DNA from: a virus
Taxonomy: Duplodnaviria > Heunggongvirae > Uroviricota > Caudoviricetes
Direction: 5' to 3' (one strand)
IMG/VR virus record: IMGVR_UViG_3300012016_000001
Location: 1 to 64,000 of that record
Length of the DNA: 64,000 nt
Below the pieces are notes generated by a model, which saw nothing but the letters and a program-made list of their open reading frames with translations, had not been told where the DNA came from and did not search any database. A program made the position numbers and the translations under genes. Of the stretch, positions 3 to 63,093 are shown one piece after another (position 1 is the stretch's first letter; each line of letters opens with the position of its first letter).

Positions 3-809
3 GATGTTAAAAGTTTGTATCCAAAAACTTATCAAAGAGAATTGGTTAATAAACAATTTAATCAACTCATTGATGTAGCTAAACAGGATATGAATCGTCA
101 AACTGGCTTTATAGTGGCTCTTGATGTTTCAGGGTCAATGACCTCTAAAGCTCCAGGTACAGGACGTTCTGCTTATTCTGTTGGGCGTGCTATGGCATTG
201 TACTTCTCTGAATTATTAAAAGGTAAGTTTGCACATACATTCTTAGCTTTTAGTAATACAGTTGTGATAGATAGATTTGAAGGTAAAACTCCTTTAGAGA
301 AATATTACAATGGATATAGAAAGTATGATGCTTGTAACACTAACTTCTTCCAGATTGCTCAGTTGTTTGTGCAACTAAAGAATAGAGGATACAAAGAAGA
401 AGATTTTCCAACAGGTATCGTATGTATATCTGATGGAGAATTTGATAGACCTGGAGGAGACTGGAATAGTACTGGTGATTCTGATTGGAGATATAGAGGA
501 AAAGAAACCAGAGAGACAGTCTTTGAATCTTTTAAGAATCATTTAAAGAAAAATGGCTTCTCCGAAGAGTATGTTGATAACTTAAAAATGGTTCTTTGGG
601 ATGTTCCAAGCTATTACTATAGTTCTAGTCCAGATGTAAAGTTTGAAGCTCTTGCAGACACTCCAAACATTTTCCACATGAGTGGATATGACCCTGCAGG
701 TATTGCTTTCTTAACAGGAACATCACAAGTACAAGTAATTCCAAAAACTCCAGAGGAGTTATTTGAGGCTGCTATGCAGCAAGAGTTAATCCAATTGCTA
801 AACATTTGA
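3..809 (+). CDS. von Willebrand factor A (vWA) domain protein, 5' end outside window
   Basis: Frame is open to the window edge. MIDAS-like motif VALDVSGSM and downstream ISDGE motif. Confidence 0.6.
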   Translation, partial: DVKSLYPKTYQRELVNKQFNQLIDVAKQDMNRQTGFIVALDVSGSMTSKAPGTGRSAYSVGRAMALYFSELLKGKFAHTFLAFSNTVVIDRFEGKTPLEKYYNGYRKYDACNTNFFQIAQLFVQLKNRGYKEEDFPTGIVCISDGEFDRPGGDWNSTGDSDWRYRGKETRETVFESFKNHLKKNGFSEEYVDNLKMVLWDVPSYYYSSSPDVKFEALADTPNIFHMSGYDPAGIAFLTGTSQVQVIPKTPEELFEAAMQQELIQLLNI

Positions 810-5116: not shown

Positions 5117-5205
5117 GCCCTCATCGTATATCGGTCAGTGCTGGAAACAGACGATTACCCCTGCCTTTTAAGCAGGTAAGCATGGTTCGACTCCATGTGG
5201 GGGCA
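5117..5205 (+). tRNA. tRNA-Lys(TTT) with about 17-nt expansion of the D-arm (89 nt)
   Basis: Acceptor GCCCTCA/TGGGGGC, anticodon arm CCTGC-CTTTTAA-GCAGG, T-arm CATGG-TTCGACT-CCATG. The D region is GTA-T-ATCG...CTG-GAAA-CAG...CGAT-TAC, an extended helix carrying a GAAA-capped hairpin. Confidence 0.6.
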
Positions 5206-5244
5206 CTATAAAAATCAAGACAATAAAAGTAGTTTTTAAGAAAT

Positions 5245-6876: not shown

Positions 6877-7010
6877 ACTTTAAATATTGACCCTAGCTTT
6901 AGCTTCACACTTTAGCTTTACAGAATCCTAGATAGTAAGCATCAATGTTGTGGTCAAAAGCTTTAGCGAAGTTGATTACAGTGTATTACTTACCTTGACG
7001 ACTATTATCG

Positions 7011-7154
7011 CTCGGTAATCGCGGGTTCAAATCCCGTCCCGCCCTCAAACAGAGTTCTTCTGAACTCTGCCCTTTCATGTTACTTTAGTCATTGCTTGTG
7101 AAAGTAGTGACTATATGGGCGGGTCGTCTAGTGGTTAAGACTCCGGGTTTTTAA
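7011..7154 (+). tRNA. circularly permuted tRNA-Lys(UUU)-like gene: 3' half (7011-7045) lies upstream of the 5' half (7117-7154)
   Basis: The 3' half is CTCGG-TAATC-GCGGG-TTCAAAT-CCCGT-CCCGCCC-T. The 5' half is GGGCGGG-TC-GTCT-AGTGGTTA-AGAC-T-CCGGG-TTTTTAA. Acceptor and anticodon stems are complementary only between the two halves. Neither half has a partner in the normal gene order. Confidence 0.55.
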
Positions 7155-7228
7155 GCATCAGCATTATAGGGTAAAATGTAATACGCAAAAGTTCATGGAT
7201 TAGTAAGACGGATTTGTCGCTAATCCTA

Positions 7229-7498: not shown

Positions 7499-7646
7499 AA
7501 AGGAGACGAACAGCAATTTCAACGTTTTGCATTTTGGTTGCCGAAGTTAGGGTTCGAATCCCTAGTCCTCCCTAATGGGAGGATTAGTGTAACTGGTAAG
7601 TGTGAAGTTAAGCACACGATAGCACGCGTTTTTGTTGGTCTCCTTT
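7499..7646 (+). ncRNA. CAGCAA-box element, copy E9, enclosing tRNA-Ser-like pieces in permuted order
   Basis: AAAGGAGAC (7499-7507) pairs with GTCTCCTTT (7638-7646). CAGCAA at 7511-7516. Inside, the T-arm TAGGG-TTCGAAT-CCCTA and GTCCTCC are followed after 6 nt by GGAGGAT, the same acceptor as the tRNA-Ser at 7851. Confidence 0.45.
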
Positions 7647-7940: not shown

Positions 7941-7942
7941 CT

Positions 7943-18074: not shown

Positions 18075-18275
18075 ATGAAATTAACTTGGACAAACGCTGT
18101 CTATTTACTAATATGGTTTGTATTAGTTATATTAGGTTTAGATTTAGCACTAGGATGGTTAAACCTTCCTAGTACTTTGGCTAACATCGGAGGATTATTC
18201 CTAATTTTCTCTATAGTTTTTATCTCTGTTAAAACAAAATTATTTACAAATTTTAAAAACCTATTTAAAAAATGA
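18075..18275 (+). CDS. small membrane protein
   Basis: Two hydrophobic segments. Confidence 0.45.
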   Translation: MKLTWTNAVYLLIWFVLVILGLDLALGWLNLPSTLANIGGLFLIFSIVFISVKTKLFTNFKNLFKK

Positions 18276-26298: not shown

Positions 26299-27551
26299 AA
26301 ACGTTAAAATTTCTTAAGGACTGGTTTTGATGATTCATATTTTCTATATTAGTTATAATAAAATTATAACAATATGGAAATTAATGAAAAAATTGAAACT
26401 GGAGTCAAAATGTACCTGAATGGTGATGGCACATTAACACAATTACAGAGTATACTTGGAATTAGTAAAGATTTAATAGTAGCTAGATTAAAGGAATTAG
26501 GATATACAATTAAAAGAGGCTATAAACTATCTACAGTAATAGGGTTAAAGGCTGCTACTGAAGAATATTTAGCTAATTATAATAATAATCCTAGTTTGAC
26601 TCAAATAGCTGCTAAACATGGAATAAAAAGACAAACTCTTTCTTCACACGTTAAAGAATTAGGTTATGAAGTTATTAATCATCAAGATAGATTGAAATTT
26701 GATAACACTATATTTGATAGCATTGATACAGAAGAAAAGGCTTATTGGTTAGGATTTATATTTGCAGATGGATATGTAAGTGATAATAATGATTTTGAAG
26801 TATCTTTAAGTATTAAAGATTTTACTCACTTAAATTTATTGCATTTATTTATGAAGACTGAAAAGCCTGTCGGATTTAATGAGACTAGATGTAGACTATG
26901 TGTGAGAGATACTCACTTAGTAAATACTCTTAAGTCTTATGGTTGTATACCAAGAAAATCCTTAGTCTTAGAATTTCCAGAAGAAAAAATCTTTAAAGAT
27001 ATTAAACTTATAAGACATTTTATAAGAGGATTTGTTGATGGGGATGGATGCATTACTTACATCAATAAGGAACATACAAAGCCTCAACTCTCTATTTTAG
27101 GAACAGAGCAATTTCTAAATAAACTTCAGGAGTATTTACCTATTGATTTTATACATCAATTAGGATATAATAATAAATCTAAGAGTTTAGTAACTAGAGT
27201 TTTATCCTTTAATGGAAGTACTGCTTACAATGTTTGTAAGTTTCTATATCAAAATTCTAAAGTGTACCTAGATAGAAAATATGAGAAATTTTTAGAAATT
27301 TGCCGTTCAGAGGAGGAATCTTCTGAATTATTACTGGGCAAAAACGGTGAAGGCTGTGATGCTCCCGCCGTGGTAAATTCAGAAATTGCGAAAGGTTCTG
27401 AATCACCGTACAGCGTAGAGAGTGAATAAATATAATCTCTCCAAGAGTGCCTGGCACCCCAACTGAAATAAGTGGGTGAAAACGTACGCGGGACTTAAGC
27501 AAATAAGAAGCTTAAGAAACTAAGATAAAAAGCTTAGTGGTAACAAAATCG
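26299..27551 (+). mobile_element. group I intron carrying a LAGLIDADG homing endonuclease gene
   Basis: Splicing GGT|...tcG|AAG ACT ACC restores GGTGSGKTTF. The 5' exon ends in T and the intron ends in G. GC-rich paired segments occur near the ORF 3' end and downstream of it. Confidence 0.6.
26374..27429 (+). CDS. LAGLIDADG homing endonuclease (double motif) with N-terminal HTH-like repeats
   Basis: YWLGFIFADGYV and IRGFVDGDGCI motifs. Confidence 0.8.
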   Translation: MEINEKIETGVKMYLNGDGTLTQLQSILGISKDLIVARLKELGYTIKRGYKLSTVIGLKAATEEYLANYNNNPSLTQIAAKHGIKRQTLSSHVKELGYEVINHQDRLKFDNTIFDSIDTEEKAYWLGFIFADGYVSDNNDFEVSLSIKDFTHLNLLHLFMKTEKPVGFNETRCRLCVRDTHLVNTLKSYGCIPRKSLVLEFPEEKIFKDIKLIRHFIRGFVDGDGCITYINKEHTKPQLSILGTEQFLNKLQEYLPIDFIHQLGYNNKSKSLVTRVLSFNGSTAYNVCKFLYQNSKVYLDRKYEKFLEICRSEEESSELLLGKNGEGCDAPAVVNSEIAKGSESPYSVESE

Positions 27552-37733: not shown

Positions 37734-37782
37734 TCTTGAGAATTACATAATTATTTATTATATTTAATATCTTGTGTTAAAT

Positions 37783-39474
37783 ATGGAAATAATGAAAGTA
37801 ATTAAACGTGATGGAAAATTGGAGGAATTTGATGCCTCTAAAATAAAGGCAGCTATTAGGGCTGCCTTTAAAAGTGCAGATGAAGAATTTGACGAAGAAT
37901 TAATAGATGATATATTCAATGATCTTCCTTTATGGGATGAAATGACTATTGATTCTATAGAAGATCAAATAATTGAAGTTCTGAATGACTTTAACTATGA
38001 AAATGTAGCTAGAGAGTATCTATTCTATAAATGGGAACACCAGAAAGCTCGTAATTTAGCAGAGAGCAAGAGGTCCTTTATAGAAAGATATAAAGAAGCT
38101 ACTAATACTGCAAATGCTACTATAGATGACAATAGTAATGTCGGGAATAAGAATATAGGTATACTTAATGCAGAAGGCCACAAGACTGAGAATATTTTAG
38201 TTAGTAGGGCAATGATAAAGAGTAAACTTAAAAGCTTGTTTCTTGACTTTGATGCTAAACAGTATGTAAGAGACTTGAAAAGTCATATAATTTATAAGCA
38301 TGACGAGTCTAGTTTTATGGGTGCTATTGCTCCTTACTGCTGTTCTATATCTATGTATCCTTTCCTCATAGGAGGAATAAAGGGTATAGGTGGTCTTTCT
38401 GCAGCTCCTAAGAATCTTGATAGTTATTGTGGAATGTATGTTAATCTTATATTTGCAATAGCTGGGCAGTTTGCTGGAGCAGTTGCTACTCCTGAATTTT
38501 TATTGTATTTTGACTATTTTGCACGTAAACAATGGGGAGATTTATATTATCAAAAACCTAATGTTCAGACTACCAGTGATTATGTACTACGTAAAATGAC
38601 AATACAAAAGGAAATACATCAATATTTTCAACAAGTTATTTATAGTATTAATCAACCAGCAGCTGCAAGAGGTATGCAATCTGCATTTGTGAACTTTGCA
38701 TATTTTGATAAACCATTTTTTGAAGCAATGTTTGGAAATTTTGTATTTCCAGATATGTCTACTCCTAAGTGGGAATCTCTAAATTGGTTACAAAAAGAGT
38801 TTATGCGATGGTTTAATTCAGAAAGATGTAAATGTATTCTAACTTTCCCTGTAGAATCTTTTGCTCTTATTTATAAAGATGGTAAGTTCTTAGATGAGGA
38901 AAATGCAAAGTTTGTTGCAGAAGAATACTCTAATGGTCATAGCTTTTTTACATATATTTCTGATACTGCTGATAGTTTGTCTTCTTGTTGCCGCCTCAAA
39001 AACAAAGTGGATACAAAAGAATTTAACTTTACCAATGGAAACATGGGTGTGGAGACGGGCTCAAAGAGTGTTATAACTCTTAATTTAAATAGGATTATAC
39101 AAGATTGGTGTAAGTTTATAGGAGGAGTTCCGAAAGTGGGAAATCAATATGACAGTTTACGTCTTTATTTAAGAAATATTCTTCAAAGAGTATATAAATA
39201 TCATATAGCATATAATGAATGCTTATGGGATATGTATGATGCTGGATTACTTCCAGTTTATTCCAATGGATTTATATCTCTTAACAAGCAATATCTAACT
39301 ATCGGACTTAATGGACTTAACCAGGCAGCAGAATTCTTAGGCATTGAGTGTAATGTAAATCAAGAATATCAAGACTTCTGCCAAGCTGTATTCTCTATCA
39401 TAAAGGAAGCTAATTCTGAAGCTAATGGAAAATACTTTGGACACAAAGTTACATTTAATACTGAATGTGTCCCT
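37783..39474 (+). CDS. nrdD: anaerobic ribonucleoside-triphosphate reductase NrdD, exon 1
   Basis: N-terminal ATP-cone (VIKRDGKLEEFDASKI) and class III RNR core ending FNTECVP at the predicted 5' splice site. Confidence 0.8.
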
Positions 39475-40504
39475 AGACTCAGTGGGGACGTTAAACCTCT
39501 ATTGATTGACTTGGAAGCCCCTAGAGGGCAACAGGGCGCAAGCAGAAGCGTTTGTAAGTTTCGTGCAGCGTGAACGACTAAGTATAGAGGCTCCTTAAGT
39601 TACTGCAGTGATGCAGTTCTTTTGGGAGATGCGATAGTCTGAACTCTATGGTAACATAGAGAGGAAATTTGAAGAAATTTCCCATCCAAACTTGTTTTCT
39701 CATAAAACACTTATTAAGTTTGTTCTATGTAATAAATGAAAATGTTATTTAAAATTTTTATGAAAATGGAACAAGAAGTACGTAAGTGTTGTATTTGTGG
39801 AGCGTCAGTAGGAAATGGAACTGACAAAGTTTACAAATTTTCAGATGGAAATATGTATTGCAAGAAGCACTATCTTCAGATGTATAGACATGGACATATA
39901 ATAGAAAGAACTATATATGATCCAAATGAATATATAGAATATGAAGATTATGCAGAATGTATATGTTATGATAAATCTGGAAATGAGAAAGGAAGAGTAA
40001 AAATAGATCTAGATAAAGTTTCTTTAATAAAAAAGCATAAAGTGTACATAAGAAAACAAAATGACAAAATTTATGCAGCGATTTCCATTGATAATAAAAA
40101 GGTAATGCTCCATAGATATTTAATGGAAATAATTAATGAAGAATATTCTATTAATAAAGTTGTTGATCATATAAATGGAGATTCTTTAGATAATAGGATT
40201 TCTAATTTAAGAATTTGTACACATAAACAAAATATGCAAAATATAAGAAAGAAAAATAAAATAGTAGGAGTATCTAAAAGTCCTAATAAAAATAATAGAT
40301 GGATTGCAAGAATAATGCATAATTATAAAACTATTAATTTAGGATATTTTGATACTTATGCAGAGGCCACTTTAGCTCGTATACAAAAAGAAAAGGAAAT
40401 CTGTGGAGAGTATGGGCCTAACAAGGATTTATTTTACGTTTTGGATCTCCCTTCTCCATTGGAAGAATTACAAAAATTTGTTCCAGAAGGGGTGTAACAG
40501 AATG
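39475..40504 (+). mobile_element. group I intron carrying an HNH-AP2 homing endonuclease gene
   Basis: Splicing CCT|...aatG|GCT GAA restores the conserved VPAE. The 5' exon ends in T and the intron ends in G. A GC-rich structured 260 nt, including GATAGTCTGAAC (group I core-like), precedes the ORF. Confidence 0.65.
39736..40497 (+). CDS. HNH homing endonuclease with an AP2-like DNA-binding domain
   Basis: VDHINGDSLDNRISNLRICTHKQN (HNH) and NRWIARIMHNYKTINLGYFDTYAEA (AP2-like). Confidence 0.75.
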   Translation: MKMLFKIFMKMEQEVRKCCICGASVGNGTDKVYKFSDGNMYCKKHYLQMYRHGHIIERTIYDPNEYIEYEDYAECICYDKSGNEKGRVKIDLDKVSLIKKHKVYIRKQNDKIYAAISIDNKKVMLHRYLMEIINEEYSINKVVDHINGDSLDNRISNLRICTHKQNMQNIRKKNKIVGVSKSPNKNNRWIARIMHNYKTINLGYFDTYAEATLARIQKEKEICGEYGPNKDLFYVLDLPSPLEELQKFVPEGV

Positions 40505-40978
40505 GCTGAAAGTTTAGCTGCTAAGAATTATAATTGGGATAAAGAAGATGGATATTGGGTACCTGAAGATACTAATCTATACGCATCTTATATATTTAAG
40601 CCTAATGATAAGTCTGTAAGTATTCTAGATAAAATTACATTACATGGTTCTAATTATATAGGAGATTATTTAGACGGAGGAAGTGCTGCACATATTAATC
40701 TAGCAGACCATCCTTCTTTCTTCCAAGCCTGGAAAATTCTAAATTTTGCAGCAGAACAAGGATGTCAGTATTTTACTTTTAATGTTCCTAATTCTGAGTG
40801 TCAAGATTGTGGATGGATAGGTAAAAAACCAGTAAAAGTATGTCCTAGATGTGGTTCTACGCATATAGATTACTATGATAGAATTATTGGTTATTTAACT
40901 AAAATACGTAATTGGGCAGATTGCCGTAAAATTGAACAAAAAACTAGAGTTTATGAAAAATTCGAAGATAGAGCCTGA
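40505..40978 (+). CDS. nrdD: NrdD, exon 2 (zinc ribbon and glycyl-radical motif)
   Basis: CQDCG...CPRCG zinc ribbon and DRIIGYL glycyl-radical-type C-terminus. Confidence 0.8.
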   Translation, partial: AESLAAKNYNWDKEDGYWVPEDTNLYASYIFKPNDKSVSILDKITLHGSNYIGDYLDGGSAAHINLADHPSFFQAWKILNFAAEQGCQYFTFNVPNSECQDCGWIGKKPVKVCPRCGSTHIDYYDRIIGYLTKIRNWADCRKIEQKTRVYEKFEDRA

Positions 40979-47002: not shown

Positions 47003-47503
47003 TTGAATATGCTAGACATTGATAACATACATGTTGATTTAGATATAGTATTATCTAAAAAGACTACATTAAAGCAGTTACTTAATCCAACTGAGTTAGC
47101 TTCTTTAAAGTCTAAAGCTATTAAAAACCACTATGATGATGCAGCCATAATGGAAGCAGCTCATAGGCTTATTAAAGAGAACATTGCAGATTACTTAGAT
47201 AATTCTGATTTTCTTGATGCTAATGTAATATTAGAAACAGACCCTTATATAATTAAGGCTATGGAACTAATGCAAGCTAGTCAACGAGACGCTGGAATAT
47301 TACTTGTAGAAAAAGAGTATAAATATCCGGGATGTTGGGTAAATGATATAGCTAATGCATTAAGAGAACTTAAATGTAGTAGTGATATGTATAACACATT
47401 GGTATGGGATGCTTATTATGTACATAATTATACTAATAATGAAAATATCCCGGGATGGAAAAACCTTCAAGATGTGTTAGAAGATTACTATGACACACTA
47501 TGA
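47003..47503 (+). CDS. hypothetical protein
   Basis: 166-aa ORF (TTG start or ATG at 47009). Confidence 0.5.
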   Translation: MNMLDIDNIHVDLDIVLSKKTTLKQLLNPTELASLKSKAIKNHYDDAAIMEAAHRLIKENIADYLDNSDFLDANVILETDPYIIKAMELMQASQRDAGILLVEKEYKYPGCWVNDIANALRELKCSSDMYNTLVWDAYYVHNYTNNENIPGWKNLQDVLEDYYDTL

Positions 47504-48708
47504 CATTAGTTACTAGAGACAGTAAAGGTAAAATCAGAGTCGTTGATATATGGACGAATCACGACTCTGATTCCTCTACTATATGTAGAGAGACTTACCA
47601 ATATCTAGGAAAACATACAAGACAACCTGATATTGTAATAGAAGCTGGAAAAGCTGGGCGTGATATTGCAGCACAATGTGAATTACAATTTATGTCTCAG
47701 TTAAAAAGTTATAAAGATAAAGGTTATAAAGAATTAGAAAAAGACATATCTAAGTATACAGAAAAAGAACTAAATGAAATAGTTGGAGATACTATTACTA
47801 ATCAGCATGGTGTACAAAAACCCATGTTAGCTAAGCAAGCTGACAAAGTGTCTCAAAAGGCTATTGATAAAGTTCCTTACTGGTACGCGAGCAGAAAAAT
47901 AGATGGAGTACGCTGTTCTTTCTATTTAGATGGGGATACTATAAGAACATCTAGTAGAGGAGGAGAGGACTACGATTGTGCTTGTATGCACTTTATAAAT
48001 AATGAAAAATTAAAGAAATTCTATGAAAGGCATCCTGGAATAGTCTTAGATGGTGAACTATATAAACACGGACGGAGCCTTCAACAAATCTCAGGCGCTG
48101 CAAGACTTGAAAAGAATGCTGTAGACTGTGACTGGCTAGAATATTATATTTATGACATCGTAGACACTAACAGAACGTTTGAAGAAAGACTTAAAGTGTT
48201 GGCTGCAATTAAATATGAACTTGGACTCGGATTCAATCCAGAAAGAGAATGGAAAGAAGGAGAACTACAGTTCCAAATGGTTCCACAACAAAAGGTGTCT
48301 GGCTTCAAGAATATAAATATACTTCACGATATTTATGTATCAGAAGGATGGGAAGGAGTCGTTATCAGAGACCCATCTAAAGTGTATAGACCTAATGGGC
48401 GTACCAATGATATGATAAAATTTAAGAAGTATAAAGATGCAGAATTTTTAGTTATAGATTATGAACTAGGTCTTAGAGGTACTGAAGATATGACCTTTAC
48501 TTGTACTACTCCTGCTGGACTAGAGTTTAAGGCTAAGCCTTGGGGAGATAGAGCTATTAAAGAGGAATATGTAAAGAACTTTAAAACTAAGTATCAATAT
48601 AAGTTAGCAAAGATTAAGTTTTTCTATTATTCTAACGGAAATAATGAAAAGACTGGAGTTCCACTTCAACCATCACTTATATGTTTCCGTGATAAATCTG
48701 ATATGTAA
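47500..48708 (+). CDS. ATP-dependent DNA ligase
   Basis: Nucleotidyltransferase motifs: I SRKIDGVRC, III LDGELY, IV EGVVIRD, V MIKFKKYKD. Confidence 0.7.
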   Translation: MTLVTRDSKGKIRVVDIWTNHDSDSSTICRETYQYLGKHTRQPDIVIEAGKAGRDIAAQCELQFMSQLKSYKDKGYKELEKDISKYTEKELNEIVGDTITNQHGVQKPMLAKQADKVSQKAIDKVPYWYASRKIDGVRCSFYLDGDTIRTSSRGGEDYDCACMHFINNEKLKKFYERHPGIVLDGELYKHGRSLQQISGAARLEKNAVDCDWLEYYIYDIVDTNRTFEERLKVLAAIKYELGLGFNPEREWKEGELQFQMVPQQKVSGFKNINILHDIYVSEGWEGVVIRDPSKVYRPNGRTNDMIKFKKYKDAEFLVIDYELGLRGTEDMTFTCTTPAGLEFKAKPWGDRAIKEEYVKNFKTKYQYKLAKIKFFYYSNGNNEKTGVPLQPSLICFRDKSDM

Positions 48709-48890
48709 TGTTTATAACTATTAGTGATTTTGATGGAAATGTTATAAAGTTAAATAAATCTTTAATAAATAGATTGTTTCCTAATGCCTGTGTAGATATT
48801 AATAGTTATGAAAAAGCTATGGAAACTCTAGGTATTGAATCTTTTGATAAGGTTATAGACGGAAAAATAAAATTACATATTAGAAAATGA
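48708..48890 (+). CDS. hypothetical protein
   Basis: 60-aa ORF. Confidence 0.4.
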   Translation: MFITISDFDGNVIKLNKSLINRLFPNACVDINSYEKAMETLGIESFDKVIDGKIKLHIRK

Positions 48891-49162
48891 TTCCTTCTAA
48901 GTTTAAAATTGGAGCACAGTGGTTTACTGTAGAATTTGTAGATGAATTAGATGAAGAATATGGAGAATTTAGCTATACTCCTCCTATTATAAAGATAGCG
49001 AAAACATTAGACGGAGAGGAAATTCCTCAAAACCAGCTAGAAGCAACTTTCTGGCATGAATTTTTTCATGCTTTTCAGTACATGTTTAATTGTGAGACCG
49101 ATGAAACACAAGCTCAATGTTTTTCTAACTTTATGATGGAGTTTTTAGAAACTAGACAATGA
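48887..49162 (+). CDS. small HExxH motif protein (metallopeptidase-like)
   Basis: FWHEFFHAF. Confidence 0.4.
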   Translation: MIPSKFKIGAQWFTVEFVDELDEEYGEFSYTPPIIKIAKTLDGEEIPQNQLEATFWHEFFHAFQYMFNCETDETQAQCFSNFMMEFLETRQ

Positions 49163-50553
49163 AATTACAAGTAAGTAAAAATGCAAACGTAAACTACCTT
49201 TCTAAGGTAATAGAAATAAAAGAATTTGTTAAGCATCCAGATCCCAAAGTTGAAAGAATTAAGTGTGCCGTAGTAGATGGATTTATAATTACAATAGGAA
49301 TAGATAGTCAGCCTGGTAAATATGTCTATTTTCCTGTGTTATCACAGATAAATCCTAATCTATTACAATATCTTAATTTATATAGGAATGCTGAAAAGAA
49401 TAAAGACCCAGAGAAAACTGGATATTTTGAAGATAAAGGAATAGTAAAAGCAATCAACTTAAGAGGTGTAAAATCGGAAGGTTTCCTACTTCCCTTAGTA
49501 GACTTACAAAACTTTATTATAGACCAAGTTAATGTTGATTTAGGAGATGTAGAGGCTAATGTTGAATTTGATGAAGTAGAACATGAAGGTAAAACGTTCT
49601 GGATATCGAAAAAGTACGTCGTCCCTGTTAGAGGTGAAGGAACTCAATCACAAGGTGGAAAAGTACGCAAGCAAAAGAAAGGACTCGATAAAATTATTGA
49701 CTCCCAATTTAGATTCCATTATGACACAGTTATTCTTAAGAAATGTCCTTACGTAATTCAACCCGATGACCTTATACACATTAGCAGCAAGTGGCACGGC
49801 ACTTCTGGTATATCTGCTTACGTGCTATGTCATAAGAAACTTAACTGGAAAGAACGCATCGCTAGATGGTTAACTGGAGAATCATTTGATACTTATGACT
49901 ATATATATGCTTCTCGTACTGTAATTAAAAATAAATATTACAATGAGGGAGTAACGTCAGGTTATTATGATTGCGATGTATGGAAATACGCAGATGAATA
50001 TATTAGACCTTTTCTAGATAAAGGAATGACTGCCTATTATGAAATAGTCGGCTATCTTCCTAATGGAAAAATGATACAAAAAGATTATGATTATGGATGT
50101 GTTCCTCCTGTAAAAATAATTGACCCAAATACAGGTAAAGAGGTAGTTCAATATAAACAAGGAAAACAATTTAAGGTATATGTTTATAGAATAACTCTTA
50201 CTAATGTAGATGGTAAAGTACACGAATTTTCTGCACATGAAGTACAAATATGGTGTAAACAGAGGAGCATTATGCCAGTTCTAGAATACTATTATGGTTA
50301 TGCCAGGGATTTATATCCAGATGCTGTCGGAGATAATTGGTCTGTTAATTTCATGGATAATCTTGCCAATGATAAGAATTTTCATATGGAGCAGAATTCG
50401 CCTGAGTGCATTAATAAAGTTCCTCATGAAGGATTAGTCATTAAGAAAGAATCTATGAAATCAGAGGCTTGGAAAGTTAAGTGTTTTAAATTCTTAGGTA
50501 AAGAACAAGACGCTGCTCTTGCTGGAGAGACTAATATTGAGGACAATGCGTGA
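49159..50553 (+). CDS. RNA ligase (Rnl2-like nucleotidyltransferase)
   Basis: Motif I-like SSKWHGTSG (compare KxHGxN of T4 Rnl2), motif IV HEGLVIK, motif V WKVKCFKF. Confidence 0.5.
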   Translation: MKLQVSKNANVNYLSKVIEIKEFVKHPDPKVERIKCAVVDGFIITIGIDSQPGKYVYFPVLSQINPNLLQYLNLYRNAEKNKDPEKTGYFEDKGIVKAINLRGVKSEGFLLPLVDLQNFIIDQVNVDLGDVEANVEFDEVEHEGKTFWISKKYVVPVRGEGTQSQGGKVRKQKKGLDKIIDSQFRFHYDTVILKKCPYVIQPDDLIHISSKWHGTSGISAYVLCHKKLNWKERIARWLTGESFDTYDYIYASRTVIKNKYYNEGVTSGYYDCDVWKYADEYIRPFLDKGMTAYYEIVGYLPNGKMIQKDYDYGCVPPVKIIDPNTGKEVVQYKQGKQFKVYVYRITLTNVDGKVHEFSAHEVQIWCKQRSIMPVLEYYYGYARDLYPDAVGDNWSVNFMDNLANDKNFHMEQNSPECINKVPHEGLVIKKESMKSEAWKVKCFKFLGKEQDAALAGETNIEDNA

Positions 50554-51395
50554 AACAAATAACGATTAAACAAAGTATTACCAATAGAGATAGGGATTCT
50601 GTTAATCTTTATCTCAAGGATATTGGTAAAGTAAAGCTCTTATCTGCTGAACAAGAAAAAGAAATAGCTCGTAAGGCTAAGGCAGGAGATAAGAGAGCAA
50701 GAGATAGACTTATTGCAGCTAATACTAGATTTGTTATTACAGTAGCTAAACAATATCAAGGACAAGGTCTAGATTTAGAAGATTTAATAAGTGAAGGTAA
50801 TATAGGTCTTATTAAGGCAGCTGATAAATTTGACCCAGATAAAGGATATAAATTTATTTCCTATGCTGTATGGTGGATAAGACAATCTATATTACAAGCA
50901 TTATCAGATAAATCTAGAACTATAAGATTACCTTTAAATCAAGTGGCTATGCTTAATAAAGTAAGAAAAGCTATTTCTGAATTTGCAGGTAAAAATGAAA
51001 GAGACCCTTCAATGAAGGAACTTTCTGAAATTACTGGTATAAATGAATCTAAAATTACTAGTATTCTTAATATGTCAGTACATATGTTATCTGTAGATTC
51101 TCCATTTAAAGATGAAGAAGAAGGTACTCTTATTGATATTATCCCAAATAATAATAGTCCAAAAGCTGATGCAGCACTTATAAAAGCATCTAAAGAGCAT
51201 GACCTTGTTAAGATATTATCTATACTTGGTCCACGTTCTCATGATATAATTCGTATGTACTTTGGACTGGGGGTTAGAGAAATGACTCTAGATGAAATAG
51301 GAAATAAATTTGGAGTTACTAGTGAAAGAATAAGACAGTTAAAGGAAAAAGCGTTAGATGCTATTAAACCAAATGTTCAAAAATATCTAAAGTGA
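50550..51395 (+). CDS. sigma-70 family RNA polymerase sigma factor
   Basis: Region 2 (FVITVAKQYQGQGLDLEDLISEGNIGLIKAADKFDP...YAVWWIRQ) and region 4.2 (TLDEIGNKFGVTSERIRQL). Confidence 0.85.
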   Translation: MKQITIKQSITNRDRDSVNLYLKDIGKVKLLSAEQEKEIARKAKAGDKRARDRLIAANTRFVITVAKQYQGQGLDLEDLISEGNIGLIKAADKFDPDKGYKFISYAVWWIRQSILQALSDKSRTIRLPLNQVAMLNKVRKAISEFAGKNERDPSMKELSEITGINESKITSILNMSVHMLSVDSPFKDEEEGTLIDIIPNNNSPKADAALIKASKEHDLVKILSILGPRSHDIIRMYFGLGVREMTLDEIGNKFGVTSERIRQLKEKALDAIKPNVQKYLK

Positions 51396-51598
51396 GATTC
51401 TTAGTCGAATTTGAAGAAAATATAACTACTCGTAGAATGGTAAGAGCTATAATAGAAGCTGATTCAGAGAAGGATATCAAAGATGAGATATTTGAAGGTA
51501 ACTATGAAGTAGATGATTGTTTTGATTGTTATGATACAGATTGGGAATTCATAAATATAAATAGTATTAAACCTTATGATAAAAACGTGGAAAGTTAA
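51392..51598 (+). CDS. hypothetical protein
   Basis: 68-aa ORF with GTGA overlap. Confidence 0.4.
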   Translation: MRFLVEFEENITTRRMVRAIIEADSEKDIKDEIFEGNYEVDDCFDCYDTDWEFININSIKPYDKNVES

Positions 51599-51914
51599 AA
51601 TTTATTGTCCTTACGGAGAGGAAGTTTTTGTTGCTTATGCAGAAGAAAACCCAATAGATAATGAATTAATTTCTTGGGATGAACTGAGGGAGATATATCA
51701 AGAATTATGGGATAGTTATGGATATATAGTAACAGACCATACTGATGCAGATCCAGATGAAGAAGCTTATGAAGAAGAGTGTGAACAACTGTATGAAGAC
51801 TTTATGTGTGATACAGGAGCATCTGCAGAAGAAATGCCTATAGAGAAGATTAAATTATATACATCTAATGGTTCTGACCCAGAAATAATTTACGACGAAC
51901 GAAATGAAAAGTAA
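51576..51914 (+). CDS. hypothetical acidic protein
   Basis: 112-aa ORF. Confidence 0.45.
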   Translation: MIKTWKVKIYCPYGEEVFVAYAEENPIDNELISWDELREIYQELWDSYGYIVTDHTDADPDEEAYEEECEQLYEDFMCDTGASAEEMPIEKIKLYTSNGSDPEIIYDERNEK

Positions 51915-52584
51915 TTTTATCCATGTTTGCTTTATTATTGATGAAAGTTCATCAATGTACAACTCTGTAAGTGACGTAAAAGGAGGATTCAAGAAGATTA
52001 TAGATGAACAAAAAGCTAATAAAGAAGGTTCTTGTGCTATCTCTATATTTAGATTTGCAACAACTCCAAAAGAGGCTGACTTTATAATGAAAGATGTTAA
52101 CGAAATAGAAGGAAATATAGAATATAATCCTTCTGGTTGTACAGCAATGTATGATGGAATAGGAGTAGCTATAGATGAAATTGGAGAACGTTTAGCCACT
52201 ATGCCTGAAGATGAACGTCCTGAAAAGAACCTTATAGTTATTATGACTGATGGAGAAGAGAACTCTTCCCATATTTATCAACCTTCTAAAGTACATGAGA
52301 TGATTAAGCACCAAGAGCAAAAGTATAATTGGACATTCCTTTATATAGGCACTGATATTACTAATGCTAATGATGCTGATAGAGTAGGAATTGGACGTAA
52401 ATTTGCCACTACAAGAAATAAGATGTATAAAGGTTATAATACTATAAGTAGTATGACTTCTTGTTATAGAGCTACTAAGGGAATGGCAGAAAACAGATAT
52501 GCTGTTATGGACATGTATCTTGATGCTGCAGTTACTGATAGTAATGCGGAATATAAAGCTGATACTGGAATTGAAATAAAATGA
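51904..52584 (+). CDS. vWA domain protein
   Basis: MIDAS-like FIIDESSSM and MTDGEEN. Confidence 0.65.
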   Translation: MKSNFIHVCFIIDESSSMYNSVSDVKGGFKKIIDEQKANKEGSCAISIFRFATTPKEADFIMKDVNEIEGNIEYNPSGCTAMYDGIGVAIDEIGERLATMPEDERPEKNLIVIMTDGEENSSHIYQPSKVHEMIKHQEQKYNWTFLYIGTDITNANDADRVGIGRKFATTRNKMYKGYNTISSMTSCYRATKGMAENRYAVMDMYLDAAVTDSNAEYKADTGIEIK

Positions 52585-52760
52585 CCTACAGAGTTCATTG
52601 TCACGAGCTAGTCTGGATGAACACTATATATGAAGTAGAAGCAGATTCTCCAGAAGATATAGAAGATATAATACTCTCAGGAGAGGCAAACGAAGTTCAA
52701 GCAGATTTTGATTGTTTAGATCAATGTGATATAGAAAGTATAATACCTATTGATGAATAA
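52581..52760 (+). CDS. small acidic protein (59 aa)
   Basis: ATGA overlap. Fills the gap between track ORFs. Confidence 0.3.
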   Translation: MTYRVHCHELVWMNTIYEVEADSPEDIEDIILSGEANEVQADFDCLDQCDIESIIPIDE

Positions 52761-53649
52761 AATTATATTATGTCAAGGCATTCAAGGCTCAGGTAAATCT
52801 ACCTGGGCCAAAGCCTGGGCTAAGGAAAACCCAGAGCATAGAGTAAGACTCAATTATGATGACCTACGTAACATGTTAGGAGTTTATTGGGTACCATCTA
52901 GGGAAGATATGCTTAAAGCTATAGAAGAAGCCTTTCTTACTAAGGCTGCAACAAAGAATTGGGATATTGTTATAGATAATATGAACTTGAATCCAAAAAC
53001 TATTGCTAAATATGAGGAATGGGCAGCAGTTAATGGTTATCAACTTGAAAAGGTTCTATTTGATACTCCAGTAGAAGAATGTATAAGAAGAGATGCTATG
53101 CGCCCTAATCCTATTGGTGAAGTAGTTATCAAACGTACTTGGAATACCTATAGAAACTATATAATACAAGAGAGTATTAAAAAGATGAAAGAAAGAGAAC
53201 TTAAACAAGATCCTAATCTTCCACACTGTATTCTTGTAGATATGGATGCTACTCTCTTTTTAAATACTAGTGGGCGTCCTTTTTATGGAGATAATTTGGA
53301 ACCTACTGATATATTAAAAGATGAACCTATTCCAGGTACTATAGCCTTAGTAAAGGCTTATCAAGCTAGTGGTAATCTAGTATTTGGATTAAGTGGGCGC
53401 GAAGATATACAAGGTATTCGTTTGAACACTGAAAAACAATGTGCTAACCAAGGAATATATCTTGATAAATTATTCTTACGTCCAAAAGGTTCTCGTAAAA
53501 AGGGAGACGAGCAAAAGAAAGAACTATTTGAAAAATACATTAAAGGGCAGTTTTATGTAGACTTTGTTCTTGAGGATTCTTCTAAAGTAGTTAAAATGTA
53601 TAGAGATTTAGGACTTACTGTTCTACAACCAAATGAAGGAAAGTTCTAA
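52753..53649 (+). CDS. polynucleotide 5'-kinase/3'-phosphatase (T4 Pnkp-like)
   Basis: N-terminal IILCQGIQGSGKSTWAKAW closely matches the T4 Pnk P-loop. C-terminal HAD motif LVDMDATL. Confidence 0.8.
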   Translation: MNKIILCQGIQGSGKSTWAKAWAKENPEHRVRLNYDDLRNMLGVYWVPSREDMLKAIEEAFLTKAATKNWDIVIDNMNLNPKTIAKYEEWAAVNGYQLEKVLFDTPVEECIRRDAMRPNPIGEVVIKRTWNTYRNYIIQESIKKMKERELKQDPNLPHCILVDMDATLFLNTSGRPFYGDNLEPTDILKDEPIPGTIALVKAYQASGNLVFGLSGREDIQGIRLNTEKQCANQGIYLDKLFLRPKGSRKKGDEQKKELFEKYIKGQFYVDFVLEDSSKVVKMYRDLGLTVLQPNEGKF

Positions 53650-59693: not shown

Positions 59694-59929
59694 ATGAAGA
59701 AAAACAACAAAAAGTAGAAGCAATGCAGGAACTTCTTGAAAATGAAGATATTAAAAGAATGTGGCTGAAAATGCACACTCCTTGGATACATACAGATAAA
59801 AAGGTAGGACGTAATGAAATATGTCCCTTCTGTGATTCAGGAAAGAAGTATAAGCATTGTGAATGCTATAAGAAGAAAGATGTAGCTAAATTCAGATTAG
59901 ATACAAAACATACAAAAGGATGGAACTAA
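59687..59929 (+). CDS. SEC-C motif small protein
   Basis: NEICPFCDSGKKYKHCEC. Confidence 0.5.
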   Translation: MVNEEKQQKVEAMQELLENEDIKRMWLKMHTPWIHTDKKVGRNEICPFCDSGKKYKHCECYKKKDVAKFRLDTKHTKGWN

Positions 59930-60537
59930 TAAAGAAATATGAGAATGGGGACAACCTGTTCTTTACATCTGATACCCACTTCTATCATGCCAACATTATA
60001 AAGTTTTGTGGTCGTCCATTTGAAGACGTAGAAGAAATGAATAAAACTTTAATAGACAACTGGAACAAAACTGTTGGAAAGAATGATATTGTTTATCATC
60101 TTGGAGACTTTTGCTTTGCAGGTTCAGCTGCATGGTACTCTTTACTTAGTCAATTAAATGGAAGAATTCACTTAATAGTTGGAAATCATGATGAAAAGAA
60201 TCTTAGGCAGGGTTATTCCCAAATGTTTGAGTCAACATCCTATCAGCAGCGCTTACTTATTGAAGGTTATAATGTGTACCTTAATCATTATCCTTATCTG
60301 TGTTATCCAGGGTATAAGCCCTATACAATGCAGCTTTTTGGTCATATTCATAGTAGCCACAATAAGTTTGATGGAATGGACGCTCAAATTGCGAAAGCTC
60401 AGTTACAACCATCTCAATATGATGTGGGAGTAGATTGGAATAACTTTACTCCCATTAGTTGGGAAGAGATAAAACAAAAGATTATTAAACAAAAAGAAGA
60501 AAATGTTAATATGTACGGTAAATCCAAAAAATTATGA
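59920..60537 (+). CDS. metallophosphoesterase
   Basis: FFTSDTHF, LGDF, GNHD, GHIH motifs. Confidence 0.7.
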   Translation: MELIKKYENGDNLFFTSDTHFYHANIIKFCGRPFEDVEEMNKTLIDNWNKTVGKNDIVYHLGDFCFAGSAAWYSLLSQLNGRIHLIVGNHDEKNLRQGYSQMFESTSYQQRLLIEGYNVYLNHYPYLCYPGYKPYTMQLFGHIHSSHNKFDGMDAQIAKAQLQPSQYDVGVDWNNFTPISWEEIKQKIIKQKEENVNMYGKSKKL

Positions 60538-61103
60538 ACAAAACTCTAATTATCGTAGACCCACAGTATGACTTTATAGAAGGTGGAAAACTTCCAGTAG
60601 AAGGAGGTAAACAAGCGTTAGACAATGTTGTTGATTACCTTAATTCTGGAGAGGTATCTTTAGTCATCATCACACAAGATTGTCATAATGGAATGCATTG
60701 CTCATTTAAAGAGCAAGGAGGACCATGGCCAGAACATTGTGTTGAAGGAACTCATGGAGCAGAAATTTATAAACCTATATTAGATGCTATAGAGAAAAAC
60801 CATATTATGGTCTATTATCTACAGAAAGGACATTACTTAGAAGAGTATTCTGCTTTTCGTAGACAAACAGAAGGATATGCTCACTGGAAAGAGTATTCTA
60901 CAGAAGATGATAGAGAACCTTATATTCAGTTCCATGAAGATGAAATAGTTCAAATTTGTGGATTAGCTGGAGATGTTTGTGTTATGAGGACTGCTATAAT
61001 CCTTAAAGATATCAAACCCGTAATCATTGAAGATTTAACTGCTTCTTTAAATGCTGATAACTTTAGGAAACTTGCAGACATAAATGGAATTACAATAGTA
61101 TGA
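60534..61103 (+). CDS. pncA: nicotinamidase (isochorismatase family) PncA
   Basis: IIVDPQYDF (Asp), QDCHNGMHCSF (metal-site D-x-H...H-x-SF pattern), ICGLAGDVCV (catalytic Cys). Confidence 0.7.
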   Translation: MNKTLIIVDPQYDFIEGGKLPVEGGKQALDNVVDYLNSGEVSLVIITQDCHNGMHCSFKEQGGPWPEHCVEGTHGAEIYKPILDAIEKNHIMVYYLQKGHYLEEYSAFRRQTEGYAHWKEYSTEDDREPYIQFHEDEIVQICGLAGDVCVMRTAIILKDIKPVIIEDLTASLNADNFRKLADINGITIV

Positions 61104-61915
61104 TTAATAATCCAGTTTTAGGAGCAATCATAGGGGACATAATAGGTGTTCCCTATGAGTTCCTTCGAGTGCCTGGGACTAGTATTCCTAAGAATTTCCC
61201 ATTGTTCAAGAAAGATAGTCATTATTCAGATGATTCTGTAATGACTCTAGCTGTAGCAAGATGGTTATTAGAAAAAGATTTAAGTTCATCTGCCTTAATA
61301 AAGTGCATGCAGGAAGTTGGACAAGCACATCCAAATGCAGGTTATGGTGGAATGTTCAGAAGATGGCTATGGGATGAAAATCCAGTCCCATATAATAGTT
61401 GGGGAAATGGCTCAGCTATGCGTGTCAGTCCAGTTGCCTGTGCTTTTGATACAGAACAAGATGTCTTGAAATATGCAAAAATATCAGCTGATGTGTCACA
61501 TAATCACCCAGAAGGTGTAAAGGGTGCACAAGCTATTGCTTTTGCTATTTGGGCAGCACAAGATTGTTGGGGAAAAGATCCTATTAAATTTGAAGTAAGA
61601 GATTTTACTCAGTATGATTTAAATAGGACTCCTAGAGAAATCATAGATTCTGGATATTCTTTTGAAGTAAGTTGTCAAAAGTCTGTGCCTGAAGCAATAT
61701 GCTGTTTCTTAGATAGTAATTCTTATGAGGAGACTGTAAGAAAGGCTGTCTTACTTAAAGGAGATACAGATACTCAAGCTTGTATGGCTGGAGCTATAGC
61801 TGCAGCTTATTGGGGAATTCCAGAAGATATTGCAAGAAAAGGTATTGACTTACTTCCTGGAGACCTATTTGATATTTTGTATGATTTTAGTGACGAATTT
61901 AATTTACCATTATGA
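61100..61915 (+). CDS. ADP-ribosylglycohydrolase family protein
   Basis: GAIIGDIIGVPYEF, SDDSVMT, GDTDT motifs. Confidence 0.7.
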   Translation: MINNPVLGAIIGDIIGVPYEFLRVPGTSIPKNFPLFKKDSHYSDDSVMTLAVARWLLEKDLSSSALIKCMQEVGQAHPNAGYGGMFRRWLWDENPVPYNSWGNGSAMRVSPVACAFDTEQDVLKYAKISADVSHNHPEGVKGAQAIAFAIWAAQDCWGKDPIKFEVRDFTQYDLNRTPREIIDSGYSFEVSCQKSVPEAICCFLDSNSYEETVRKAVLLKGDTDTQACMAGAIAAAYWGIPEDIARKGIDLLPGDLFDILYDFSDEFNLPL

Positions 61916-63093
61916 TTTTAAGTATTTTAGACACTGATTTGTATAAGTTTACGACATCGTATGCTTATCAAAAGTTATACCCTAAAGCAATGGGTACGTT
62001 TGAGTATGTAGACAGAAATAACAACGTCTATGAGGATTCTTTTTTAATAGCCTTGAAAGAACAAATTAATATCCTAGAGACTATTAAATTAACACCTTCT
62101 GAATTCTTCAGTATACTTAATAATAAGTGGTTATCTAGATTTATTCCAACTTCTTATTGGGAATGGTTAAAGCAATTTAACTTTGAACCTAATAAGATTA
62201 AAGTCTGGCTTGATGAAAATAAACATTTACATATTACAGTTACTGATTACTTATATAAGGTGACTCTATATGAAGTTCCGTTACTTTATACAGTATCTGA
62301 ATGCTACTATAAGTACTATAATAAGTTAGCTAATTATGATTTGATGTTTGATAATTTAAAACAGAAAATCACTTTTGCTAATGAAGAAAATCTAATATTT
62401 TCTGAATTTGGCACTAGAAGAAGGTATTCTTCTAATATACATGAACAAGTTATTAAATATCTAAAAGATCATTCTAAAACTTGTGTAGGAACTTCTAATG
62501 TTTACTTTGCATTAAAATATGATATGATGCCCTGTGGTACTTTTCCACATGAATGGGTAATGTTCCATGGTGCAGTATGGGGATTTCAACAAGCTAATGA
62601 ACTTGCTATGAGAGACTGGGTAAGATGCTATGATGGAGATTTAGGAACTGTACTTGTAGATACATACACTACTAAATTTTTCTTAAAGCAATTCTCACGT
62701 AAGTATAGTAAGTTGTTTGATGGTCCTCGTATTGACTCTGGAGATGAAAGAGAGCTTGGAGATTTATTCATAGAGCATTATAAAGCTCTTAATATAAATC
62801 CACTTACTAAAACTTTAGTAATGAGTAATGCTCTTACATTTCCTAAGTTTAAAGAGATTAGAGATTATTTTGCTGGACGTATTAATGTTGTCGCTGGAAT
62901 AGGCACTAATCTTACCAATGACTGTGGAGTTGTACCACTCAATGAAGTTATGAAACTTATAGAATGCCAAGAATATGAAGGAGCACCTAAACTCCCTTGT
63001 ATTAAACGTTCTGATGATAAAGGTAAACGTCTGGGCAATGCTGTACAACATGATATCTTAGACCATATTTTATTAAATGCCTCGCAAGTCTAA
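61912..63093 (+). CDS. pncB: nicotinate phosphoribosyltransferase PncB
   Basis: N-terminal LDTDLYKFT, EFGTRRR, and C-terminal phosphoribosyltransferase core. Confidence 0.7.
   Translation: MILSILDTDLYKFTTSYAYQKLYPKAMGTFEYVDRNNNVYEDSFLIALKEQINILETIKLTPSEFFSILNNKWLSRFIPTSYWEWLKQFNFEPNKIKVWLDENKHLHITVTDYLYKVTLYEVPLLYTVSECYYKYYNKLANYDLMFDNLKQKITFANEENLIFSEFGTRRRYSSNIHEQVIKYLKDHSKTCVGTSNVYFALKYDMMPCGTFPHEWVMFHGAVWGFQQANELAMRDWVRCYDGDLGTVLVDTYTTKFFLKQFSRKYSKLFDGPRIDSGDERELGDLFIEHYKALNINPLTKTLVMSNALTFPKFKEIRDYFAGRINVVAGIGTNLTNDCGVVPLNEVMKLIECQEYEGAPKLPCIKRSDDKGKRLGNAVQHDILDHILLNASQV

Follow-up and report, generated by a model that had tools for sequence, protein, structure and literature searches.

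A T4-type Pnkp and a predicted Rnl5-family RNA ligase in a large gut or rumen phage: a candidate RNA-repair pair and likely YrlA-like tRNA mimics

The polynucleotide kinase-phosphatase (Pnkp) and RNA ligase 1 (Rnl1) of bacteriophage T4 reverse the cleavage of tRNA-Lys by PrrC. Here we describe a T4-type Pnkp and a predicted RNA ligase of the Rnl5 family encoded in a 64,000-nucleotide stretch of a Caudoviricetes virus (positions 1 to 64,000 of the IMG/VR record IMGVR_UViG_3300012016_000001; hereafter, the window), together with a 'permuted tRNA-Lys' cassette that had been proposed as their substrate. Mycobacteriophages of clusters J, E and L all encode a Pnk, an RNA ligase and at least one tRNA, a combination proposed to serve RNA repair against host evasion mechanisms (Pope et al., PMC3706429). 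Jumbo phages that carry tRNAs, ATP-dependent RNA ligases and PNK-HAD enzymes follow the same logic, and a few of them also encode a TROVE/Ro60 protein with a tRNA-like partner as an RNA-repair platform (Iyer et al., PMC7824862). Rnl5 enzymes are defined by an N-terminal signature domain and a nucleotidyltransferase (NTase) domain without a C-terminal appendage, and their phage homologs have already been listed (PMC4408790). Because the mycobacteriophages of clusters J, E and L and the jumbo phages carry Pnkp, this ligase family and tRNAs, the combination of the three is already known in phages and is not new.

The window comes from a large phage genome of the gut or rumen. Its proteins are found again on 180–190 kb contigs from gut and rumen metagenomes, its G+C content is 31–39%, and its long open reading frames (ORFs) all lie on the + strand. 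A host in the Bacteroidota is inferred, the DNA of the window being only weakly similar to Prevotella Lak phages and Bacteroides crAss-like phages. The mycobacteriophages of clusters J, E and L (e.g., Omega gp136 and gp162) have the same ligase family, a bifunctional Pnk and tRNAs in unlinked or loosely linked positions, yet they infect another phylum, and the window has a far larger tRNA array (22 tRNA genes and a transfer-messenger RNA, tmRNA, at 2.7–12.5 kb) as well as Ro60-like and Y-RNA-like components. The T4 system differs in that its cognate anticodon nuclease has no known counterpart in the host of this phage, and in that the sealing enzyme of the phage lacks the C-terminal specificity domain of either T4 Rnl1 or T4 Rnl2. 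All three ORFs listed in the earlier note on this DNA, an interpretation made from the letters alone, are present:

47500..48708, + strand: ATP-dependent DNA ligase, 402 amino acids (PF01068, E 9.6e-21; phrog_114, E 1.4e-50; motif I K133-IDG)
49159..50553, + strand: predicted Rnl5-family ATP-dependent RNA ligase, 464 amino acids, catalytic residue K211 (profile, alignment and model)
52750..53649, + strand: T4-type polynucleotide 5'-kinase/3'-phosphatase (Pnkp), 299 amino acids (HAD_PNKP, E 6.1e-25; AAA_33, E 2e-17; phrog_505, E 8.9e-63)

The Pnkp retains every motif attributed to it, including the near-T4 P-loop and the DxDxT phosphatase signature, and only its start needed correction: translation begins at a TTG codon at 52750, and the ATG at 52753 is the second codon. 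The protein aligned over its full length with Pnkp1 (4XRP, E 4.5e-25) and T4 Pnk (1LTQ, E 1.7e-20), and its HAD_PNKP match spans the full profile. Pnkp1, the best solved relative, belongs to the Pnkp1-Rnl-Hen1 repair complex of Capnocytophaga gingivalis, a member of the Bacteroidota. In the kinase domain, the P-loop (G10-S17, with K16), the D-D-x-R motif (D-D-L-R) and the R-x-x-x-R residues align with their T4 equivalents. In the phosphatase domain, D164-M-D-A-T168 (DxDxT) and the SGR and (E)D motifs align with both T4 and Pnkp1. Hence both domains that define a T4-type Pnkp, an N-terminal P-loop 5'-kinase and a C-terminal HAD-type DxDxT 3'-phosphatase, are represented.

ORF 49159-50553 had been read as an Rnl2-like RNA ligase on the strength of ligase motifs I, IV and V and a KxHG-type motif I. 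The motifs stand; the Rnl2-like label does not, for the architecture is of the Rnl5 type. A single-sequence search against the PDB returned zero matches, the Pfam RNA_ligase match was below threshold (E 0.0044) and phrog_968 ('RNA ligase') was matched with an E of 6.4e-35. An exhaustive search yielded 1,820 cluster representatives, and we aligned 105 diverse ones. Invariant in all 105 homologs are K211 and G214 (motif I, KxHG), E295 (motif III), E424-G425 (motif IV) and K439/K441 (motif V), and the protein is therefore an enzyme of the ligase superfamily. The 105-sequence profile reached the Naegleria ligase NgrRnl (E 1.6e-8) through the N-terminal domain of the latter (residues 7–112) and also its NTase domain, and it reached T4 Rnl2 (E 8e-7) in the adenylyltransferase core only. 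An AlphaFold model built with the same deep alignment had a predicted local distance difference test score (pLDDT) of 94.3, and thirteen NgrRnl entries occupied the top Foldseek ranks (E ~1e-12; target template-modelling score 0.65–0.70). A shallow 24-sequence profile gave a best E of 0.13 and a poor AlphaFold2 model (pLDDT 66).

The predicted protein has an N-terminal oligonucleotide-binding (OB)-type domain (~residues 1–155), homologous to the signature domain of DraRnl and NgrRnl, followed by the adenylyltransferase domain (~200–445) and no C-terminal domain. It ends 23 residues past motif V (K441), leaving no C-terminal appendage and nothing equivalent to the nick-sealing domain of Rnl2 (T4 Rnl2 residues ~244–329). 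Since the N-terminal domain, the NTase domain and the missing appendage fit the published definition, ORF 49159-50553 is, as judged by alignment and model, an Rnl5-family ligase and not an Rnl2. It differs from the closest known ligase system in being ~125 residues longer (the linker between the domains is extended and the NTase domain carries insertions), in a motif I that reads KWHG, as in Rnl2 (KxHG), rather than KLDG, and in sharing only 14–19% identity; the phage enzyme is known from its sequence. Searches with tblastn found the family in 379 phage records, among them Lak, Mycobacterium, Gordonia, Microbacterium and Synechococcus phages. The Lak megaphage ligases are ~48% identical to ORF 49159-50553, and those of cluster-J mycobacteriophages, annotated 'RNA ligase', are full-length homologs with 27% identity. 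This spread over unrelated phage lineages indicates that the ligase is not specific to this phage group.

The KxDG DNA ligase assigned to ORF 47500-48708 was confirmed. PF01068 is matched across the whole profile, the adenylation domain with KxDG is followed by an OB domain, as expected of ATP-dependent DNA ligases, and a PDB search aligned the protein to residues 119–412 of the African swine fever virus ligase 6IMJ (E 1.3e-12). It is an ordinary replicative DNA ligase. Homology thus backs the proposal of an RNA-repair toolkit beside a DNA ligase, and the ensemble matches the published phage pattern (PMC3706429, PMC7824862).

We favour, with modest confidence, a reading in which two enzymes of the locus heal and seal broken RNA in a pathway of a known phage kind, likely for tRNAs that host defences have cleaved. 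The identities of the enzymes, their catalytic residues and their domain architecture are secure; the substrates and biological role are what we infer. Metal-independent ribonucleases leave 5'-OH and 2',3'-cyclic-phosphate or 3'-phosphate ends, which the Pnkp would turn into 5'-phosphate and 3'-OH ends. The Rnl5-type ligase would then adenylylate itself on K211, transfer the AMP to the 5'-phosphate and seal the break; if it behaves as DraRnl and NgrRnl do, it should favour breaks within a duplex whose 3'-OH strand is RNA. The likeliest substrates would be host or phage tRNAs cleaved by host anticodon nucleases or other RNA-targeting defences, and the pair would complement the 22-tRNA array, the tmRNA and the Ro60-like and Y-RNA-like components. 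We favour RNA repair because the Pnkp is a full-length T4-type enzyme with a complete set of catalytic residues, because phage precedents have been published, and because Pnkp lies near the ligase (2.2 kb) in a window with 22 tRNAs and a tmRNA.

Several observations weigh against this reading. The Rnl5 preference is for duplex nicks, and a break in an anticodon loop is not such a nick. The physiological substrates of Rnl5 enzymes are unknown (PMC4408790), and no host anticodon nuclease has been identified for a phage whose host is itself deduced. Scans of ~60 ORFs detected no Hen1, RtcB, 2H phosphoesterase or CCA-adding enzyme. Furthermore, the gene neighbourhood of the ligase, for which we counted genes within 5 kb in 80 related loci, is dominated by other partners. 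DNA ligase (77 of the 80), dUTPase (75/80) and DNA polymerase (64/80) are far more constant neighbours than Pnkp, which was found in 22 loci only. Because most of the 80 loci belong to one phage lineage and the flanks were limited to 5 kb, these counts are not independent.

That replication genes are the most conserved neighbours keeps alive a rival on the DNA side, which we regard as rather unlikely: the Rnl5-type ligase would seal RNA-primed or RNA-patched DNA nicks with 3'-OH ribonucleotides, and Pnkp would heal DNA ends. The genes around the ligase in the window itself are consistent with such a role: they encode Dda helicase, dUTPase, DNA polymerase, ThyX and NrdD, and the window also has an RNase H gene (12689-13108). 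DraRnl and NgrRnl seal RNA-OH/pDNA nicks (PMC4408790, PMC5397189), and Deinococcus radiodurans without DraRnl is more sensitive to ionising radiation (PMC5397189). However, phage genes for nucleic-acid metabolism cluster regardless of pathway, the neighbour counts suffer from the shared ancestry of the loci, and the phage already encodes a dedicated DNA ligase. In addition, the N-terminal domain of the ligase is similar to tRNA-binding OB folds, and mycobacteriophages that have Pnk and a ligase of this family have tRNAs as well (PMC3706429).

Three further genes lie among the enzymes:

48887..49162, + strand: 91-amino-acid ORF with an HExxH motif (FWHEFFH, read from the translation; phrog_1233, E 1.1e-10)
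50550..51395, + strand: sigma-70 family factor between the RNA ligase and Pnkp (Sigma70 r1.2, r2, r3 and r4; phrog_351, E 4e-75)
51904..52584, + strand: vWA-domain protein, a context gene (PF00092, E 5.6e-7; phrog_7371, E 6e-41)

The stop codon of the 91-amino-acid ORF overlaps the start codon of the RNA ligase (ATGA) and the two genes are neighbours in 71 of the 80 loci; the HExxH protein may be a partner of the ligase. The sigma factor is within 5 kb in 55/80. The three closest relatives share the order of the window: DNA ligase, the 91-amino-acid ORF, RNA ligase, sigma factor, vWA protein and Pnkp.

The RNA-gene array upstream contains the element that the earlier note had described as a permuted Lys-like gene at 7011-7154. 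The parts of the cassette, and the protein gene that precedes it, are as follows:

6082-6876: DUF7873 ORF, 264 amino acids, always directly upstream of the cassette leader in the window and in relatives
6981..7186, + strand: 'permuted tRNA-Lys' cassette, read as a likely YrlA-like tRNA mimic (cloverleaf, ten variants and covariation)
6981-6989 and 6990-6996: leader strands of helix A and helix B
6997-7005: GACGA-CUAU in the leader
7011-7015, 7021-7037 and 7038-7044: tRNA 3' half, with the 3' strand of the anticodon stem, the T-arm and the 3' strand of the acceptor stem
between the acceptor strands: 70-nt variable loop
7117-7123, 7126-7141, 7143-7147 and 7148-7154: tRNA 5' half, containing the acceptor stem's 5' strand, the D-arm, the anticodon stem's 5' strand and UUUUUAA
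7168-7174, 7175-7177 and 7178-7186: trailer, with helix B, the AAU bulge and helix A

The halves of a tRNA-Lys(UUU) do lie in reversed order, at 7011-7046 (which includes the variable loop) and 7117-7154. At lenient stringency, ARAGORN accepted nearly any join of the halves and did not discriminate; this approach was replaced by a tandem duplication of the region analysed at default stringency, which gave a flawless 74-nt tRNA-Lys(ttt) cloverleaf with the join at position 38/39. The reversed halves are not due to chance. What did not hold is the need for enzymatic joining. Tracing the DUF7873 ORF and a conserved 18-mer of the leader through rumen and gut phage contigs provided ten distinct versions of the cassette, all with the same layout: a conserved leader, a tRNA 3' half ending in CCC-UC, a linker of 17–100 nt, a tRNA 5' half and a conserved trailer. 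The 'anticodon' sequences differ among the ten related phages and mostly lack a canonical 7-nt loop, and with loop sequences this variable there is no one way of placing the junction that gives the variants a canonical 7-nt loop and a purine at position 37.

By contrast with the variable loops, the pairing of leader and trailer is conserved as two helices split by a constant AAU bulge (3 nt on one strand). In the 10-sequence alignment, 98.8% of the cells are paired and 9 of the 16 pairs show compensatory double changes, values that none of 500 shuffles reached and that fell to 24–48% paired when the register was slid. RNAalifold independently yielded the same 16 pairs, and the cassette fold has a z of -5.2. 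The consensus structure places a large asymmetric internal loop beside the anticodon stem and contains no bulge-helix-bulge or other defined splice signal at the junction. Searches of the cassette flanks for Rfam ribozyme and intron families gave zero matches at E up to 10. Resemblances noted by eye to hammerhead (CUGANGA), hairpin-ribozyme (GUAUAUUAC) and group I (omega-G, U.G) elements were inconsistent across the variants, and GUAUAUUAC is a Watson-Crick helix with covariation. A hairpin in the linker was considered as a splint and rejected because it does not covary with the junction.

These properties are familiar from YrlA-type Y RNAs, tRNA mimics encoded near Ro60 in >250 bacteria and phages (Chen et al., PMC4201824). 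In YrlA, a T stem-loop is followed by a sequence-variable closed 'acceptor' stem-loop and a D stem-loop, the 5' and 3' ends are paired, and the 5' strand carries a GNCGAAN0-1G motif (the putative Ro60 site) near the 5' end and, downstream of it, a YUAY motif (PMC4201824). The cassette has the same succession of a T-arm, closed variable acceptor and D-arm, its ends are paired (helices A and B) with an internal loop, and its leader reads GACGAC-UAU at 6997-7005, with YUAY retained in 8/10 variants. A scan for closed acceptors, followed by folding, identified a second candidate of this class:

7499..7646, + strand: second YrlA-like RNA
7499-7507 with 7637-7645: 9-bp closing stem
7548-7564: T-arm
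7565-7584: 8-bp acceptor-like stem with a UAAU loop, followed by a D-like arm

The minimum free energy of this RNA is -56.8 kcal/mol (z -5.5), and none of 200 shuffles was as stable. It fits YrlA better than the cassette does, with the T-arm, closed acceptor and D-arm order, paired ends and, at 7505-7510, GACGAA in exact form, although the G expected after it comes 2 nt further downstream. Searches with nhmmer found no sequence homologs of the 7499-7646 RNA in related loci, and the structural class alone recurs.

Modules of this class, here called sister modules, occur in relatives of the phage. They measure ~125–135 nt. A conserved closing stem, AAGUUACUUAC...GUAAGUAACUU (also given as AAGTTACTTAC...GTAAGTAACTT), which has compensatory variants, surrounds a T-arm, a 7-bp acceptor stem closed by 4–12 nt and a canonical D-arm. 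An anticodon loop is missing from all of them, and those with short loops lack the GNCGA motif. They number several per 10 kb, above the usual number of Y RNAs, and examples lie at the following positions of the related loci:

L022(-): 513, 3553 and 6592
L055(-): 3487, 4949 and 9285
L036(-): 821 and 9373
L001: 5709 and 8384
L065(-): 2225

Because a covarying duplex, a variable closed acceptor stem, an unconserved anticodon loop and a GNCGA-YUAY-like motif fit YrlA, the comparative evidence suggests that the 'permuted tRNA-Lys' is more likely a Y-RNA-like tRNA mimic with no need of ligation. The order shared with YrlA is V region, T-arm, closed acceptor and D-arm, and a candidate Ro60-like gene lies in the same RNA-gene array. 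The match has its limits. Unlike YrlA, the cassette retains an anticodon-like stem (5 bp) and has an acceptor stem of 7 bp whose loop measures 17–100 nt, relatives bear many such modules per genome, and the Ro60 assignment is weak. No Y-RNA family in Rfam matched 6800-7700 (E up to 10) or 1-14000 (E up to 0.1).

The gene that would provide the Ro60 partner is cut by the start of the window, 6 kb upstream of the cassette:

3..809, + strand: Ro60-like vWA protein, C-terminal part (DUF7788, E 5.1e-10; vWA_Ro60, E 1.1e-5)

The vWA_Ro60 score (25.8 bits) is just below the 27.7-bit cut-off and the TROVE part is not demonstrated. A full-length homolog (P0277) combines DUF2828 with vWA_Ro60, and the best PDB matches of the profile are Ro60 proteins with weak scores (E 0.25–1.3). 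The assignment, made by profile comparison, is suggestive. A relative that bears the Ro60-like gene (L209) ends just before the expected position of the cassette.

In Salmonella, Ro60 and Y RNAs are encoded in one operon together with RtcB and RtcA. The Ro60-like protein, the YrlA-like mimics, Pnkp and the Rnl5 ligase could similarly form one RNA surveillance and repair system, a phage analogue of the rsr-yrlBA-rtcBA operon in which Pnkp and Rnl5 stand in place of RtcA and RtcB. We consider this coupling unlikely. It would account for the vWA ORF at 3-809 and for two YrlA-like RNAs (6981-7186 and 7499-7646) with GNCGA motifs and covarying closing stems, and it has parallels in Salmonella, where Ro60 and Y RNAs are co-operonic with RNA repair enzymes (PMC7790460), and in the TROVE proteins and tRNA-like partners of some jumbo phages, viewed as an RNA-repair platform (PMC7824862). 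The components are, however, 40–50 kb apart, the Ro60 assignment is below the cut-off with PDB matches no better than E 0.25, no Rfam Y-RNA family is matched, and the number of tRNA-like modules per genome in the relatives far exceeds that typical of Y RNAs.

The remaining alternative is the one raised by the earlier note, which is that the cassette, and perhaps the sister modules, are genuine permuted or two-piece tRNA precursors closed by Pnkp and the Rnl5 ligase. The duplex would present the ends, a nuclease would trim them and the two enzymes would close the anticodon loop, joining ...GGGUUUUUAA (...CCGGGUUUUUAA) to CUCGGUAAUCG..., after which RNase P and 3' processing would remove the linker. 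Such a precursor should contain a perfect cloverleaf, and the halves give one in which the loop reads UUUUUAA, the acceptor stem has 7 bp and no nucleotide for tertiary interactions is missing; the covarying helices A and B would keep the ends together. In most variants the loop starts with UU, and nucleotide 37 is A if the 5' half supplies all 7 nt. The YrlA of Mycobacterium smegmatis has an acceptor stem of 7 bp, and RNase P cleaves this RNA, which receives CCA (PMC4201824); removal of the linker is therefore plausible. The permuted tRNAs of Cyanidioschyzon merolae and some archaea likewise have the 3' half upstream, with the junction at the anticodon loop and the acceptor ends bridged by a linker; they rely, however, on a bulge-helix-bulge, a splicing endonuclease and an RtcB-type ligase, of which the phage shows no sign, and among the phage variants there is no conserved joined loop. 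Given ten variants without a consistent junction that yields a canonical loop and a YrlA architecture, the link between Pnkp, the ligase and a permuted tRNA is very unlikely: there is no bulge-helix-bulge, consistent omega-G or U.G, or Rfam ribozyme or intron match, the sister modules have a continuous closing stem instead of an anticodon arm, the conserved GACGA-CUAU resembles the Ro60 site of YrlA, a second Lys(UUU)-like tRNA is encoded at 5117-5206, and the ligase family is widespread in unrelated phage lineages (whose genomes were not scanned for the cassette). If this reading is true, a bacterial virus would for the first time be shown to have permuted tRNA genes and a protein-catalysed tRNA-splicing-like pathway, and an Rnl5 enzyme would have its first assigned physiological substrate.

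Other features accompany the cassette. The DUF7873 protein has no PHROG or PDB similarity and could be a processing or binding factor or form a mobile unit with the cassette. The upstream part of the conserved leader, 6877-6961, contains three copies of TAGCTTTA(G/C)-like words and a potential hairpin (TTGACC...GGTCAA); these may serve the phage sigma factor as promoter elements or be further RNA structure. One related locus (L007/L077, IMGVR_UViG_3300028833_000230) has the leader 18-mer, an ordinary tRNA-Lys(ctt) called by ARAGORN ~230 nt downstream and a permuted module at 341 in the closed-acceptor scan. Five viral-collection scans and a search anchored on DNA polymerase, which addressed whether the cassette co-occurs with the ligase and Pnkp across genomes, did not return the cassette-bearing contigs, an absence that exact-word seeding and the limit of 80 loci make uninformative.

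The Lys(UUU)-like tRNA mentioned above and three other elements complete the tRNA-like genes of interest:

5117..5206, + strand: tRNA-Lys(UUU)-like gene, 90 nt, with a ~16-nt D-loop insertion (GAAA-capped hairpin); called Val(gac) by ARAGORN
5302-5357: partial tRNA (model positions 8–63, 35.8 bits)
7229-7302: amber-suppressor-type tRNA (anticodon CUA; Rfam tRNA, 60 bits), directly after the cassette trailer
7365-7459: 95-nt tRNA-like element (Rfam, 33 bits) in which the anticodon region spans 27 nt and the variable part is long

The Val label of the 5117-5206 gene is a mislabel; the anticodon arm (CCUGC-CUUUUAA-GCAGG), acceptor stem and T-arm are intact. The syntenic gene of L209 (16859-16933) is a normal 75-nt tRNA-Lys(ttt). 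The window gene could be a nuclease-evading variant, contain a D-loop intron or be a pseudogene. The CUA tRNA is a hint that genes beyond the window may recode TAG; within the window, the ORFs read through with the standard code.

We also identified an nrdD gene (anaerobic ribonucleotide reductase, 37774-40978) split into an N-terminal part (37774-39573) and a C-terminal part (40403-40978) with an HNH endonuclease ORF (39736-40497) between them, an arrangement that resembles an intron carrying a homing endonuclease, like that of T4 nrdD. A LAGLIDADG ORF (26374-27429) lies just before a DnaB-like helicase. The window further encodes an NAD-salvage/ADP-ribose cluster at 59920-63093 (a metallophosphoesterase, an isochorismatase/nicotinamidase-like protein, an ADP-ribosylglycohydrolase and a nicotinate phosphoribosyltransferase, NAPRTase), a Band-7/SPFH protein at 18272-19057 and the RNase H. 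Genes similar to these are among the conflict-related adaptations of large phages (PMC7824862).

Taken individually, the enzymes of this locus are ordinary. They add a Bacteroidota-type gut or rumen lineage to the phages with Pnkp and an Rnl5-type ligase and, in doing so, correct the family assignment of the ligase. A lineage that combines an Rnl5 ligase and a T4-type Pnkp with a tRNA array, a tmRNA, a Ro60-like protein and tRNA mimics is a good system for finding the substrates of Rnl5 enzymes. The family of permuted tRNA-like RNAs, with covarying closing stems and several members per 10 kb in the relatives, may matter more than the enzymes. Calls of 'permuted tRNA' in phage genomes should be tested first for a Y-RNA architecture.

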